Shown piece after piece: positions 59,597-64,000 of a stretch of DNA of 64,000 bases. The notes beneath the pieces are model-generated. The model did not search any database. It was not told where the DNA came from and saw nothing but the letters and a program-made list of their open reading frames with translations. The stretch lies in assembly GCF_041886205.1 (NCBI RefSeq), contig NZ_CP169029.1. One strand, 5' to 3'. The first letter of the stretch is position 1. Each line of letters starts with the position of its first letter. The DNA is from Escherichia coli. Lineage in GTDB: Bacteria; Pseudomonadota; Gammaproteobacteria; Enterobacterales; Enterobacteriaceae. Position numbers and translations under genes: made by a program.

Positions 59597-60487
59597 ATGA
59601 TGTTTAAGCAATACCTGCAAGTAACGAAACCAGGCATCATCTTTGGCAACCTGATCTCGGTGATTGGGGGATTCCTGCTGGCCTCAAAGGGCAGCATTGA
59701 TTATCCCCTGTTTATCTACACGCTGGTTGGGGTGTCACTGGTTGTGGCGTCGGGTTGTGTGTTTAACAACTACATCGACAGGGATATCGACAGAAAGATG
59801 GAAAGGACGAAGAATCGGGTGCTGGTTAAAGGCCTGATCTCTCCTGCTGTCTCGCTGGTGTACGCCACCTTGCTGGGTATTGCTGGCTTTATGCTGCTGT
59901 GGTTTGGCGCGAATCCGCTGGCCTGCTGGCTGGGGGTGATGGGCTTTGTGGTTTATGTCGGCGTTTATAGCCTGTACATGAAACGCCACTCAGTCTACGG
60001 CACATTGATTGGTTCGCTCTCCGGCGCTGCGCCGCCGGTGATTGGCTACTGTGCAGTAACCGGCGAGTTCGATAGCGGCGCAGCGATCCTGCTGGCTATC
60101 TTCAGCCTGTGGCAAATGCCTCACTCCTATGCCATCGCCATTTTCCGCTTTAAGGATTACCAGGCGGCAAACATTCCGGTATTGCCAGTGGTAAAAGGCA
60201 TTTCGGTGGCGAAGAATCACATCACGCTGTATATCATCGCCTTTGCCGTTGCCACGCTGATGCTCTCTCTTGGCGGTTACGCTGGGTATAAATATCTGGT
60301 GGTCGCCGCGGCGGTTAGCGTCTGGTGGTTAGGTATGGCTCTGCGCGGTTATAAAGTTGCTGATGACAGAATCTGGGCGCGCAAGCTGTTCGGCTTCTCT
60401 ATCATCGCCATCACTGCCCTCTCGGTGATGATGTCCGTTGATTTTATGGTGCCGGACTCGCATACGCTGCTGGCTGCTGTGTGGTAA
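59597..60487 (+). CDS. cyoE: protohaem IX farnesyltransferase (haem O synthase)
   Basis: 296-aa from [18 protein letters not shown]; ORF-track start at 59552 is over-extended. Confidence 0.95.
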
Positions 60488-60506
60488 CACAACCTCTCAG
60501 TTAAAA

Positions 60507-60527
60507 AGGTGCTACGGCACCTTTTTT
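60507..60527 (+). terminator. rho-independent terminator of the cyo operon (AGGTGC-TACG-GCACCT + T6), A-run upstream so potentially bidirectional
   Basis: 6-bp stem, 4-nt loop, TTTTTT tract 20 nt after the cyoE stop. Confidence 0.7.
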
Positions 60528-60544
60528 ATTGTCTGAGATCAGAG

Positions 60545-60563
60545 ATACGGCTAATAACCGTAT
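60545..60563. promoter_or_regulatory. inverted repeat IR-A (ATACGG-N7-CCGTAT), candidate operator upstream of the antitoxin promoter -35
   Basis: Perfect 6-bp arms with 7-bp spacer read directly; same architecture as IR-B 55 bp downstream. Confidence 0.5.
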
Positions 60564-60566
60564 GTC

Positions 60567-60595
60567 TTGACAGAGTGAGCAGATGAACATAAATT
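60567..60595 (+). promoter_or_regulatory. candidate sigma-70 promoter of the antitoxin-toxin operon (-35 TTGACA, 17-bp spacer, -10 TAAATT)
   Basis: Consensus -35 hexamer at 60567-60572 and plausible -10 at 60590-60595, about 75 nt upstream of the antitoxin start. Confidence 0.5.
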
Positions 60596-60599
60596 AATC

Positions 60600-60618
60600 A
60601 TACGGTTGATAGCCGTAT
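60600..60618. promoter_or_regulatory. inverted repeat IR-B (ATACGG-N7-CCGTAT), candidate operator overlapping the predicted transcription start
   Basis: Perfect 6-bp arms with 7-bp spacer just downstream of the -10; contains the spurious ATG of the ORF-track frame at 60606. Confidence 0.5.
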
Positions 60619-60671
60619 TATGTATGAGATCGACTCCCTACGATTTCATTCAGTTAATCAAAGAGGTCATA

Positions 60672-60983
60672 ATGCCTGGAAAAACAGCCACTCTACCCGA
60701 TGTCGATAAAACGCTGAAAAATGCGCGGGTCGAACTCAAAACTAGTCCCGACGCCAAAAACAAACTTCGTGAAGCTGCGCAAGCCGTTGGGGTAGATTTA
60801 AGCGCTTTTATTTTGAGCGCTGCTATGGAACGCGCCGAAAGTGTGCTTGATAACCAACGTCGCCGTGAGCTTTCGAATCAAAGCTGGGAACTGATGAACC
60901 AACTCATCGCTGAACCTGCTCAACCGACGCTCGCCCTCAAGGCGTTAATGAAAAGGAAAAACAGCGATGGTCGACAAGCATGA
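60672..60983 (+). CDS. ribbon-helix-helix (DUF1778-like) antitoxin of a GNAT-type toxin-antitoxin pair
   Basis: 103-aa from MPGKTATLPDVDK, RBS AAAGAGG 6-7 nt upstream; RHH-like N-terminus (RVELKTSPDAKNKLREAAQAVGVDLSAFILSAAMERAESVL) resembling TacA/AtaR/KacA-type antitoxins; overlaps the toxin gene by 17 nt. Confidence 0.8.
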   Translation: MPGKTATLPDVDKTLKNARVELKTSPDAKNKLREAAQAVGVDLSAFILSAAMERAESVLDNQRRRELSNQSWELMNQLIAEPAQPTLALKALMKRKNSDGRQA

Positions 60984-61509
60984 AGAGATTACTCTGCCCA
61001 TAGTCCTCTCCTGTAATTATCAGTCTGATATTACTTATCCTGGGCAAAAACAGTTTGATTGCGGTAACCCTGTTATCGATAAATTTGTACGCGCATCGCT
61101 AAAGAAAAGTGTGCGTAATAGCGACTGTGCGGCTAAAGCACTTATTGACAGACAAAGTGGTGAACTGATCGGCATCTGTACTTTTACGGCATATTCGCTG
61201 GAAAAACAACGCGTTTCTGGCGTCCTTCAGGGTTCACAACCTTCAGAAATTGGTGTTGTCAGATTAGTCATGTTGGGGGTAGCACGGAAGTATCAAAAGC
61301 GGGGCTTTGGTCAGGACCTACTATGTGATTTTTTTGAACATGTAAAAATAATTCACCAGGCATTACCAATTAAAGGGGTTTATCTTGATGCTGACCCTGC
61401 CGCCATTAATTTTTATGCTCGTCTCGGCTTTGTTCAGCTTTCAGCGACACCAAATGCTTTTGGTGCTGTACCTATGTTTTTGGCGATTCAGCATATTCTC
61501 GCGGCTTAG
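60967..61509 (+). CDS. GNAT-family acetyltransferase toxin (TacT/AtaT/ItaT/KacT-like, probable aminoacyl-tRNA acetyltransferase)
   Basis: 180-aa ORF with acetyl-CoA-binding motif A (VRLVMLGVARKYQKRGFG), motif B (AINFYARLGF) and N-terminal FDCGNPVIDKFV typical of GNAT toxins; immediately downstream of and overlapping an RHH antitoxin. Confidence 0.85.
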   Translation: MVDKHEEITLPIVLSCNYQSDITYPGQKQFDCGNPVIDKFVRASLKKSVRNSDCAAKALIDRQSGELIGICTFTAYSLEKQRVSGVLQGSQPSEIGVVRLVMLGVARKYQKRGFGQDLLCDFFEHVKIIHQALPIKGVYLDADPAAINFYARLGFVQLSATPNAFGAVPMFLAIQHILAA

Positions 61510-61564
61510 ATTATTATCGCCACCCGCCAGGGCAAGTTTTGCCTCAGCCGGGGGCTGAGCAGCG

Positions 61565-62500
61565 TTACCACTTTTGTTCAATTGCCCCCGCTTTCAGCAA
61601 CTCCACATCCTTGCCGTTAATGGTTGCCGTTGCGGCAACGATTGTGGTCCTTACAGTTGCACAAGATTTTCGCTCAAATTCCGGTTTATAAAGAATAAGA
61701 GACGAATTACTGGTAAATGAACCAAATAGGTAATCAGTAAAGCTAATATTCAGCCGGTTTAAACCGAAAGGCGCGAAGCCAACCGTTTGGTTAATCTCCT
61801 TACCGGATGGGCGACGAATGCTGAATGTCACGCGAAGGTTGGCCACTTCGCCTAATTTATTGGTGGTGGCGAAGAGGCTATCCATGCAGGAAAAACCTTC
61901 ATCTAAAAAATTATCCCGCATCCCAGAACGGGTAACCGTGATCACGGGTAACGTATCGTCAACCGTTTTTCTGTCAATCATGTCTTTTCGACAAGTAGCC
62001 AGAAAGTCTTCCGGGCCACCATAAATGTGGACACCTTTATCAAGATATTCCTTCGCTTTCTTACAATCTACCTCAACATACTGACCATTGGCGTACATCA
62101 TGCCCAACCTGGACCATGCTAAATTCACACCGTATTGCGCGGCCTGATTAAATAGCGCATACGCTTTGGCATAATCCACCCGCACCTGCTCGCCGTCGTA
62201 GTAGATACTCCCCAGCGCTAACGGTGCTTCTCTGTCACCGTGTTTAGCGGCTAACTCGAACCATTTAATCGCTTCCTGAACATCAGGTTTGGTATCATAG
62301 CGAGGCTGATAATATTCCCAGCCTAACAGGCTCTGCGCGTCGGCACCCCCCGATTCAGCCATTTTATGCAGTGTATTTATAACATTGGGCGCAGGTTTAC
62401 CACCGTATATGCTGTCATACAATTCATGTGCTTTCTCGCTTGCCACCACGCCTGGTGAAACTATTAGCATTAAAGAAAATAGTATTCTTTTAGTTAACAT
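61565..62500 (-). CDS. secreted Sel1-like repeat (TPR-like) protein with uncharacterised C-terminal domain of about 150 aa
   Basis: 311-aa from MLTKRILFSLMLIVSPGVVASE (Sec signal peptide, AAAGG RBS upstream); about three Sel1-like repeats (e.g. AIKWFELAAKHGDREAPLALGSIYYDG, YAKAYALFNQAAQYGVNLAWSRLGMMYANGQ); C-terminal half not recognised; the ORF-track start at 62560 is probably over-extended. Confidence 0.8.
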   Translation of the reverse strand: MLTKRILFSLMLIVSPGVVASEKAHELYDSIYGGKPAPNVINTLHKMAESGGADAQSLLGWEYYQPRYDTKPDVQEAIKWFELAAKHGDREAPLALGSIYYDGEQVRVDYAKAYALFNQAAQYGVNLAWSRLGMMYANGQYVEVDCKKAKEYLDKGVHIYGGPEDFLATCRKDMIDRKTVDDTLPVITVTRSGMRDNFLDEGFSCMDSLFATTNKLGEVANLRVTFSIRRPSGKEINQTVGFAPFGLNRLNISFTDYLFGSFTSNSSLILYKPEFERKSCATVRTTIVAATATINGKDVELLKAGAIEQKW

Positions 62501-62907
62501 GTATACCTTTATGTTCTCTCTGTCATATATTTCCATAATAATTAACCACCAAACATCCATTTAATGAATAAATACAGTGCCATAAAGGCCCAAGTAATAA
62601 GCACACATTTAACCTGAAACATTATCATCGATGTCACCAAATCGTTTATTTAGTGAGATAAAAATAGCATGTTCGTAAGATAAAAAATGCACATAGCAAT
62701 CAAGAAATAATATTATTACTTTTGATGTAAAACTATTTAGCTTTAAGATTCATTTTTTTCAACATATAGAGCATTCATTTTATGAATGCAAAATAAACAT
62801 ACCTGACACACAAACTATTCTCCTCTGTAATATTTTCTCATTAACACTCTGTTTACCCAACATGCGCTCCGCACTACACTATGTGGGCATTTTTTTAAGG
62901 GGTGGTA

Positions 62908-64000
62908 ATGAACGATTATAAAATGACGCCAGGTGAGAGGCGCGCGACCTGGGGTTTAGGGACCGTATTCTCGTTGCGCATGCTGGGCATGTTTATGGTT
63001 CTGCCGGTTCTGACCACGTACGGCATGGCTCTGCAAGGTGCCAGCGAAGCATTAATCGGTATTGCCATTGGTATTTATGGTCTGACTCAGGCCGTTTTTC
63101 AGATTCCGTTTGGCCTGCTTTCCGACCGCATTGGTCGCAAACCATTAATTGTCGGTGGGCTGGCGGTGTTTGCCGCCGGTAGCGTTATCGCTGCGCTTTC
63201 CGACTCCATCTGGGGAATTATTCTGGGCCGGGCGCTACAAGGCTCTGGAGCAATTGCCGCCGCCGTTATGGCGCTGCTTTCCGATCTCACGCGCGAACAA
63301 AACCGCACCAAAGCGATGGCGTTTATCGGCGTGAGCTTTGGCATTACCTTTGCCATTGCGATGGTGCTTGGCCCGATCATCACTCACAAACTTGGGCTGC
63401 ACGCGCTGTTCTGGATGATCGCTATTCTGGCAACAACCGGCATTGCGTTGACCATTTGGGTTGTGCCCAACAGTAGCACTCACGTACTTAATCGTGAATC
63501 CGGGATGGTGAAAGGCAGTTTCAGTAAAGTACTGGCGGAACCGCGACTGCTGAAACTCAACTTTGGCATTATGTGTCTGCATATTTTGCTGATGTCGACG
63601 TTTGTTGCCCTGCCAGGGCAACTGGCTGATGCGGGGTTCCCGGCGGCTGAACACTGGAAGGTCTACCTGGCAACGATGTTAATCGCCTTTGGCTCGGTCG
63701 TGCCTTTCATTATCTACGCTGAAGTTAAGCGCAAAATGAAGCAAGTCTTTGTCTTCTGCGTCGGGTTGATCGTGGTTGCGGAAATTGTGTTGTGGAACGC
63801 ACAAACGCAGTTCTGGCAACTGGTGGTCGGCGTGCAGCTTTTCTTTGTGGCGTTTAATTTGATGGAAGCCCTTCTGCCCTCACTTATCAGTAAAGAGTCG
63901 CCAGCAGGTTACAAAGGTACGGCGATGGGTGTCTACTCCACCAGCCAGTTTCTTGGCGTGGCGATTGGCGGTTCGCTGGGCGGCTGGATTGACGGCATGT
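62908..64000 (+). CDS. yajR: MFS transporter YajR, N-terminal part (CDS runs off the window end)
   Basis: Open frame from ATG 62908 (MNDYKMTPGERRATWGLGTVFSLRMLGMFMVLPVLTTYG...) to window end without a stop; absent from the ORF track; recognised as YajR. Confidence 0.93.
   Translation, partial: MNDYKMTPGERRATWGLGTVFSLRMLGMFMVLPVLTTYGMALQGASEALIGIAIGIYGLTQAVFQIPFGLLSDRIGRKPLIVGGLAVFAAGSVIAALSDSIWGIILGRALQGSGAIAAAVMALLSDLTREQNRTKAMAFIGVSFGITFAIAMVLGPIITHKLGLHALFWMIAILATTGIALTIWVVPNSSTHVLNRESGMVKGSFSKVLAEPRLLKLNFGIMCLHILLMSTFVALPGQLADAGFPAAEHWKVYLATMLIAFGSVVPFIIYAEVKRKMKQVFVFCVGLIVVAEIVLWNAQTQFWQLVVGVQLFFVAFNLMEALLPSLISKESPAGYKGTAMGVYSTSQFLGVAIGGSLGGWIDGM

Follow-up and report, generated by a model that had tools for sequence, protein, structure and literature searches.

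The divergent intergenic region between a Sel1-repeat protein gene and yajR in Escherichia coli raises two related questions: whether this short and very AT-rich stretch of DNA is the border of a recently acquired foreign islet or the control region of genes that have long been neighbours, and whether the palindrome found in it serves any regulator. The window investigated here, meaning the whole stretch of 64,000 nucleotides that was analysed (contig NZ_CP169029.1), harbours cyoB, cyoC, cyoD and cyoE in this order, all on the + strand, to the left of a variable gene cluster. Between cyoE and the Sel1 gene are found, in turn, a TacA-family antitoxin gene (60672-60983, + strand) and a GNAT toxin gene (60967-61509, + strand). 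This pair is the published itaRT (PMC6125619, PMC7367177), the TacAT-type locus of E. coli HS and BL21(DE3), and a full-length match (E 4e-118) was obtained between the toxin and the crystal-structure chain 7BYY of ItaT. Its immediate neighbour, the Sel1-repeat (Sel1/TPR) gene, is located on the − strand (61565-62500) and encodes a protein of 311 aa with a signal peptide. The ATG of the Sel1 gene ends at 62500 and the ATG of yajR, on the + strand, is at 62908 on the right flank. The whole intergenic region between the two divergent genes is 407 bp long (62501-62907) and is referred to below as the spacer.

The spacer belongs to a familiar kind, the divergent control regions of strain-variable genes; it is a two-way promoter region, ordinary apart from its very high AT content. 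Literature searches combining yajR with Sel1, for the locus tags ECD_00379, ECB_00379 and EcHS_A0503, and for cyoE/yajR with toxin-antitoxin found nothing. The analysis adds an undescribed regulatory region and a revised view of how the locus evolved; both are small novelties of modest importance, and nothing in them should surprise a specialist in bacterial gene regulation. Among the 60 RefSeq records listed there was no annotated feature in the spacer, and an Rfam covariance-model search of both strands from 60300 to 63200, with E values up to 1, gave no match.

The GC content of the spacer is 30.7%, compared to 51.4% for the window, which confirmed the description of an AT-rich stretch at 62501-62907 in the first-pass annotation. 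The bias is unevenly distributed: 62501-62837 has only 27.9% GC, whereas the remaining 62838-62907 has 44%. The most AT-rich 337-bp segment of the entire 64-kb window was found in the spacer region, with a peak of 73.9% AT at 62458-62794. TpA steps occur 11.1 times per 100 bp in the AT-rich segment against 4.3 in the window, a 2.6-fold difference.

The yajR-proximal block of the spacer (62826-62907, + strand) is conserved backbone and would hold a sigma-70-type yajR promoter together with its ribosome-binding site. An upstream AATATTT(A/T)CT element on the + strand is located in this block, followed on the same strand by a −35 element TTTACC (62852-62857), a 17-bp spacing, a −10 element TACACT (62875-62880) and the yajR Shine-Dalgarno sequence GGGGTGG (62899-62905). 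Four other Escherichia alleles share this block at 95-98% identity, and E. albertii at 88%. In an alignment of nine alleles from at least three genera, which took in the K-12 type, Superficieibacter and a locus (L025) whose CyoE is named Salmonella enterica by NCBI, the TTTACC, the 17-bp spacing, the TACACT and the Shine-Dalgarno/ATG region were all invariant. The same TTTACC-17-TACACT was the top-scoring sigma-70-like site in each of the eight alleles scanned. Based on this conservation we interpret the pair as the native yajR promoter and predict the start site from it. The expectation that part of the stretch must still carry a native yajR promoter was thereby borne out, and the promoter could be pinpointed within the retained part.

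Three lines of evidence agree on where the conserved and the variable DNA would meet. In the nine-allele alignment, conservation sets in at approximately 62826 and continues up to yajR, with no such conservation in the sequence to the left. In the K-12 type, the homology to the window is secure from TGTTTACCC (62850) at approximately 60-70% identity, and likely already from the AATATTT at about 62829. The third line comes from the E. coli O157:H7 strain TR01 (L003), which displays a rare scar allele where the first 36 bp of the cluster are joined to 62838, so that an independent deletion junction runs from 60562/3 to 62837/8 with 1 bp of microhomology. The yajR promoter block is kept in both the K-12-type and the TR01 scar alleles, in the latter from 62838, and survives in genomes without the cluster. 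Taken together, these lines place the core/variable boundary at 62826-62838, inside the spacer as the first-pass annotation had anticipated. Only the yajR-proximal 60-100 bp, approximately, aligns with the K-12-type spacer between cyoE and yajR, and the rest is accessory DNA, also as previously suggested. Extending the K-12 homology leftwards to the palindrome was attempted and rejected, as the best local alignment obtained with the leftmost 52 nt of that spacer scored no better than 19% of shuffles. On the other side of the cluster, the K-12 type and the window part right after the shared cyoE terminator, at 60526/60527. The variable cluster accordingly extends over 60527-62825 relative to the K-12 type and over 60563-62837 relative to the TR01 scar allele.

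The origin of the variable segment (62501-62825, − strand, 72% AT) was revealed by a related locus with two Sel1 genes. In Escherichia sp. E4694, E4385 and E4930, and in the E. coli-labelled genome CP057686, the order is yajR, a spacer of 393 bp, a 499-aa Sel1 gene, a gap of 10 bp, the 311-aa Sel1 gene, (itaT-itaR) and cyoE. The window is colinear from 62538 to 62907, at 77% identity, with the 393-bp spacer separating yajR from the 499-aa gene in E4694, and the corresponding non-coding DNA of E4385, E4930 and CP057686 could be aligned to it as well. From 62500 downwards the window aligns instead to the start of the second, 311-aa gene, with an interruption of the BLAST alignments between 62538 and 62500. 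The colinear spacer and the second-gene alignment together imply that the lineage of the window lost the first gene in a deletion of approximately 1.5 kb. The junction zone (62505-62537, − strand) would consist of the decayed Shine-Dalgarno region of the 499-aa gene followed by the Shine-Dalgarno sequence of the second gene (AAAGG); this zone was compared by eye, and the exact point within it is an estimate. Judged from these alignments, 62501-62825 is the putative former promoter and leader region of a two-gene (499 aa + 311 aa) Sel1 operon, and by the deletion it would have come to drive the 311-aa gene directly.

The alleles of this segment fall into two classes. Class I comprises the window and most E. 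coli, Escherichia sp. MOD1-EC7003 (MOD1) and E. albertii, and class II comprises E. coli R32 and the two-gene genomes. Identity to the window over 62501-62825 is 81-84% for the other class I alleles and 61-63% for those of class II. Between the classes, 62542-62625 is the best conserved stretch (82-86% identical), and the adjoining 62626-62770 is only 57-60% identical. A simple weight-matrix scan found no Sel1-strand promoter conserved in both allele classes. A sigma-54-like TGGCAC-N5-TTAT was considered and set aside, as it is without the GC at −12.

Based on these observations, we regard the spacer as probably a back-to-back control region of yajR and the Sel1 gene, in which a conserved yajR promoter adjoins a fast-evolving Sel1 segment at an old and patchily retained locus. 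In this arrangement, 62501-62825 would originally have served a Sel1 operon of two genes, and dyads with 6-bp arms and a 3-nt centre, located 218 bp apart in it, would be putative operators, at which a dimeric protein could control the Sel1 promoter and perhaps yajR as well.

The more distal of these dyads is the palindrome GCATTCAT-TTT-ATGAATGC, with perfect 8-bp arms (62771-62778 and 62782-62789) around a 3-nt centre (62779-62781), and it was found exactly at 62771-62789 as first reported. Its core is ATTCAT-N3-ATGAAT (62773-62787). Approximately 107 bp separate the dyad centre from the predicted start of yajR further downstream, and 270 nt lie between the palindrome and the Sel1 start codon. 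Taken alone, the palindrome is not significant, because 6-12% of shuffled spacers hold one that is equal or better. When 5000 dinucleotide-preserving shuffles of the spacer were searched for perfect inverted repeats with arms of 8 bp or longer, 11.7% contained one whose loop did not exceed 8 nt, and 6.1% one whose loop did not exceed 3 nt. Perfect inverted repeats of such quality are present in the 64-kb window in 36 cases. To our knowledge, the palindrome resembles no recognised E. coli regulator motif.

We noticed, however, that the core has a one-mismatch copy in the same spacer. This proximal dyad, ATCCAT-TTA-ATGAAT (62555-62569), precedes the Sel1 ATG by 54 bp, and the 218 bp to the distal dyad are measured from centre to centre. 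The likeness between the two copies, as read from the sequence, stretches over approximately 21-24 bp. Allowing at most one mismatch, the core has two matches in the 64 kb, both in the spacer, where 0.19 were expected. Scaled up to a complete genome, our own estimate of the number expected by chance is approximately 0.3 for exact cores and approximately 14 when one mismatch is allowed. A second such match within the 407 bp was obtained in 0.8% of shuffles of the remaining spacer, a figure which is optimistic because the 6-3-6 core was defined, and the test designed, after the data had been seen. The hexamer ATTCAT/ATGAAT occurs four times in the spacer against approximately 0.6 by chance according to our own estimate. 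An additional half-site, ATTCATTTT (62748-62756, + strand), is a direct repeat of 62773-62781 and starts 25 bp upstream of it.

Conservation of the dyads is divided between the allele classes. In MOD1 and E. albertii all 16 arm positions of the distal dyad are unchanged and the only change is in the 3-nt centre, so that 18 of the 19 positions are kept against a background of 82-84% identity in the surroundings. The centre change is identical in these two, and the three class I lineages are therefore not independent. In R32 the distal dyad reads GTATTAAT-GGC-AAGAATAC, where six of the eight pairs remain, one of them compensatory, and in the E4694-type alleles it is worse. Over all class II alleles its identity of 58-63% is no better than the background. 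The proximal dyad has been lost from MOD1 and carries two mismatches in class II; E. albertii has it unchanged. E. albertii keeps both dyads in a segment that is 84% identical overall.

There is not far short of an even chance that the palindrome is a functionless by-product of AT-rich, low-complexity sequence, and that its conservation in class I reflects shared ancestry only. The shuffles, the decay at background rate in class II and the common centre change argue for this, and the unchanged arms within class I, the second copy and the excess of hexamers argue against it. The balance between a candidate operator and a chance or lineage-specific feature is about even. Of the suggestion in the first-pass annotation that the palindrome is a regulator binding site, the conserved class I arms and the second copy speak in its favour, whereas the degraded class II alleles and the lack of a recognised motif do not; this evidence at best weakly suggests a putative regulator site. 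The two dyads may nevertheless be a candidate operator pair. They are unlikely to be read by the antitoxin next door. The 172-bp autoregulated promoter region described upstream of itaR (PMC6125619) belongs to the opposite end of the cluster, where the itaRT control region (60527-60671) contains palindromes of the form ATACGG-N7-CCGTAT (60545-60563 and 60600-60618). These are unrelated to GCATTCAT-N3-ATGAATGC, and an ItaR/TacA operator in the spacer was accordingly discarded.

The first-pass annotation had regarded the AT-rich DNA as typical of a horizontally acquired, H-NS-silenced islet between cyoE and yajR, with its right end in the spacer. A recent foreign origin of this kind, with the palindrome brought along, is an unlikely account of the locus. 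It can draw on the GC content of 27.9% in the AT-rich segment against 51.4% in the window, and on a presence/absence polymorphism with a definable empty site. Of 5426 complete E. coli genomes, 1367 (25%) carry the cluster of itaRT and the Sel1 gene, as judged by a full-length match to a 2.7-kb query across it. In nearly all the other genomes only the ends of the query matched, around a cyoE-yajR spacer of 148 bp, which is the K-12 type. Among the carriers are BL21(DE3), HS, O104:H4 and many B1 strains. The location of the boundary inside the spacer, and the plasmid relatives of itaRT, also fit with an islet.

Two of the properties that define a foreign islet, a mobility signature and absence from related taxa, were nevertheless missing. 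No integrase gene, tRNA gene, att or other direct repeat, or IS was found at the cluster borders in the ORF list, the annotation or a repeat search. True plasmid relatives were found for the itaRT module only. For the Sel1 gene and spacer there was no true match of either kind: the full-length 'plasmid' matches were records above 1 Mb, apparently chromosomes with a wrong label, and the two listed as 'phage' were unannotated records of 2-6 kb. Sel1 genes adjoin cyoE in E. albertii, in cryptic-clade Escherichia, in Superficieibacter and in Pseudocitrobacter, and wherever both flanks were recovered the position was between cyoE and yajR. The Sel1 locus of Superficieibacter electus (L021) has nucleotide identities of 85% for cyoE and 79% for yajR, and further Sel1 genes beside cyoE were found in two Pseudocitrobacter loci (L024 and L026) and in L025. 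A form with a single Sel1 gene is present in E. albertii, in MOD1 and in the R32_14_1F type of E. coli, represented by 19 genomes, and in these itaRT is replaced by a gene for a 325-aa hypothetical protein or by the remains of an M20 amidohydrolase gene.

Since Sel1 genes are found at the shared cyoE-adjacent position across these taxa, the K-12 arrangement looks like a loss. The simplest reading of the comparisons is that the cluster would be an old Enterobacteriaceae locus, patchily retained, and that the K-12 form arose by loss. The picture of a cyoE-yajR islet is thereby corrected from a recent insertion to what is apparently an old locus, lost by K-12 and carried by a quarter of E. coli. 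The Sel1 protein of E. albertii is 81% identical, against 99% for CyoE and YajR, and because Sel1 diverges so much faster than its neighbours, allelic exchange or repeated acquisition through the conserved flanks could also have taken place.

It is very unlikely that the palindrome acts as an RNA hairpin, be it a terminator, an attenuator or a 5′-UTR structure of the Sel1 or yajR transcript. As RNA the palindrome folds at −8.7 or −8.4 kcal/mol, with z of approximately −4 relative to shuffles of the same 31 nt, and a consensus scan lists it as terminator-like on the minus strand. In Superficieibacter, the first Sel1 gene has an exact copy of the core, ATTCAT-GGA-ATGAAT, 5 nt ahead of its start codon and framing its ribosome-binding site, and in L025 a two-mismatch core at the matching place frames the Shine-Dalgarno sequence. 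The positions of these copies are homologous to neither dyad of the window. Against a hairpin stands the stem itself, where only three of the eight pairs are G-C, and the tails AAAAUAAACA and UCUAUAUGUU contain no U-run. Nothing upstream on either strand would need termination, and the distances to the Sel1 start codon and the predicted yajR start given above are equally unsuitable. In addition to the lack of an Rfam family, the sole covariation is the one compensatory pair in R32. An intrinsic terminator in particular was rejected because of the weak stem (about −8.5 kcal/mol) and the missing U-run; there is no convergent gene either.

That the spacer is a decayed pseudogene remnant of the lost 499-aa Sel1 gene instead of regulatory DNA is hardly tenable and was refuted: the lineage of the window did lose that gene, but 62538-62907 is colinear with the non-coding region upstream of it and not with coding sequence, and no ORF above 32 aa lies wholly within the spacer.

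The two-way control region favoured here contains further elements in its variable part. On the − strand, a small hydrophobic ORF of 28 codons, MIMFQVKCVLITWAFMALYLFIKWMFGG*, occupies 62542-62628 and might encode a leader peptide. In the two-gene alleles it ends 21 nt before the ATG of the 499-aa gene. Six of the eight aligned alleles (those of the window, E. albertii and four class II members) keep the reading frame intact; a stop interrupts it in MOD1 and a frameshift in R32. The ORF has no match in Pfam or NCBIfam, and a codon-by-codon reading of the alignment by eye detected no third-position bias. The best conserved stretch of the variable segment, 62542-62625, coincides with this ORF, and it is at least as likely that the stretch is conserved as promoter or leader DNA rather than as coding sequence. 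Further towards yajR, two direct repeats of 20 bp in a 22-bp register, TTAGTGAGATAAAAATAGCA and TTCGTAAGATAAAAAATGCA, are located at 62650-62691, and their TTTTTATC cores are kept in both allele classes. These cores fit the degenerate AggR/Rns consensus WWWWWWWTATC (PMC6392122). By our own estimate, approximately 3-4 such matches are expected by chance at this composition. AggR/Rns sites were dismissed, as the consensus is too degenerate for DNA of 70% AT and no −10 element was found at the required 21-23 bp.

A more elaborate arrangement can be imagined, in which the spacer is the dedicated module of an ancestral, cyoE-adjacent periplasmic Sel1 operon. No regulator gene was found within the cluster. 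The two dyads would here be bound and looped together by a putative regulator from the core genome, and the 28-codon ORF would be a conserved hydrophobic leader directly upstream of the ribosome-binding site of the first gene. We consider this improbable. It recalls the paired distant dyad operators of gal, lac and deo in that the spacer likewise has two related dyads, one perfect and one imperfect. The 218 bp between them correspond to approximately 21 helical turns, and an argument based on such spacing is numerology. The candidate dyads also differ from the gal, lac and deo operators in not being conserved in the class II alleles.

H-NS prefers AT-rich DNA with TpA steps, and the composition of the AT-rich segment makes its binding there plausible. 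The segment would then probably be coated by H-NS, and the Sel1 gene would as a result be poorly expressed. The predicted curvature is mildly above the background (21.7 against 15.9 degrees per 31 bp, calculated with wedge parameters). The spacer is similar to the H-NS-silenced AT-rich divergent promoters of E. coli and Salmonella in being TpA-rich, in having a GC content 23 points below its surroundings and in preceding a gene that varies between strains and encodes a secreted protein. It differs from them by its lack of a mobility signature, its synteny across genera and its curvature, which is only slightly above background. H-NS ChIP-seq data have reportedly been published for ETEC H10407, and the genome of this strain displays the K-12 arrangement.

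The protein encoded on the Sel1 side (RefSeq WP_001490882.1) matched Pfam Sel1 with an E value of 1e-17. Its orthologues are 81-87% identical in other Escherichia and approximately 50-61% identical in other genera, and nearly all homologues of high identity come from Escherichia. Among solved structures, its repeat region matches EsiB best (c5321; 4BWR, E 2e-40). EsiB is a different protein from a different locus, and only the repeats match. For studies of this uncharacterised secreted Sel1 protein, or of itaRT, the two dyads, the two direct repeats and the small ORF are now defined targets, together with a core/variable boundary placed by the alignments at 62826-62838. The spacer is also a site of insertion in one strain: in TUM17668, an IS1 element was found inserted in it, adjoining the proximal dyad.

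The gap between cyoE and yajR is a multi-allelic hotspot, with alternative fillings of the site located at L004 1807-3040, L006 4130-5830 and L019 4548-5525. A 325-aa hypothetical protein without any family match occupies the site in R32-type E. coli and in E. albertii. The MOD1-EC7003 site harbours an M20-type amidohydrolase gene, of which R32 has kept just the 3′ end. The alternative fillings also include a different cyoE terminator.

The cyoE terminator is common to the K-12-type and window alleles. In the yajR upstream region, the K-12-type spacer (L001 689-836) displayed approximately 60-70% identity to the conserved block at window 62826-62907, a block that is 95-98% identical across the other compared Escherichia alleles and 88% identical in E. 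albertii. A simple deletion as the origin of the K-12-type allele does not fit such divergence despite the common terminator, and the K-12-type yajR upstream region therefore either reflects a dimorphism of long standing or was imported as a segment.

A rare scar allele was identified in E. coli O157:H7 TR01 (L003 2926-3070), in which the initial 36 bp of the cluster are fused straight to window position 62838. This is a clean deletion of the whole cluster with a microhomology of 1 bp, and one ItaR-type palindrome is retained within the 36-bp remnant. Partial matches of this kind were found in at most 6 of 5426 genomes.

Other variants affect the spacer itself. In E. coli TUM17668 an IS1A insertion (L005 2289-2986) lies at about window 62555, adjoining the proximal dyad, and cuts the Sel1 gene off from most of its own upstream region. 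The same allele shares with the B-type alleles a 9-bp duplication (TCTGTAATA) at about window 62826, on the border of the conserved yajR block; the spacer of the B/BL21-type alleles carrying it is 417 bp long compared to 408 bp.

The toxin-antitoxin pair at window 60527-61509 is itaRT, the toxin matching the ItaT structure chain 7BYY with an E-value of 4e-118. A promoter-like site, TTGACA-17-TAAATT (window 60567-60595), is flanked on both sides by ATACGG-N7-CCGTAT palindromes (60545-60563 and 60600-60618), which are likely ItaR-ItaT operators, unmapped in published itaRT work. Within the cluster, only the itaRT part has plasmid relatives, found in Citrobacter, Rahnella and Serratia at 65-72% identity. 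Two records from phage collections, OR845150.1 (6.5 kb) and OR844664.1 (2.3 kb), were 100% identical to the itaRT end; both are very short and unannotated, and probably represent host DNA fragments rather than phage genes.

A 28-codon hydrophobic ORF (MIMFQVKCVLITWAFMALYLFIKWMFGG) lies on the minus strand (window 62542-62628), where the variable spacer is best conserved; it is open in six of eight alleles and broken in two, and its substitutions show no coding signature. A pair of 20-bp direct repeats, spaced at 22 bp and with conserved TTTTTATC cores (window 62650-62691), matches the degenerate AggR/Rns consensus, as expected by chance at this composition.

The core of the window palindrome recurs identically, at non-homologous positions, in Superficieibacter, where ATTCAT-GGA-ATGAAT (L021 2022-2036 and L022 530-544) brackets the first Sel1 gene's Shine-Dalgarno sequence. 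ATTCAG-GGA-GTGAAT likewise brackets that gene's Shine-Dalgarno sequence, again at a non-homologous position, in L025, a locus whose CyoE is called Salmonella by NCBI, 5 nt ahead of the start codon at 1746.
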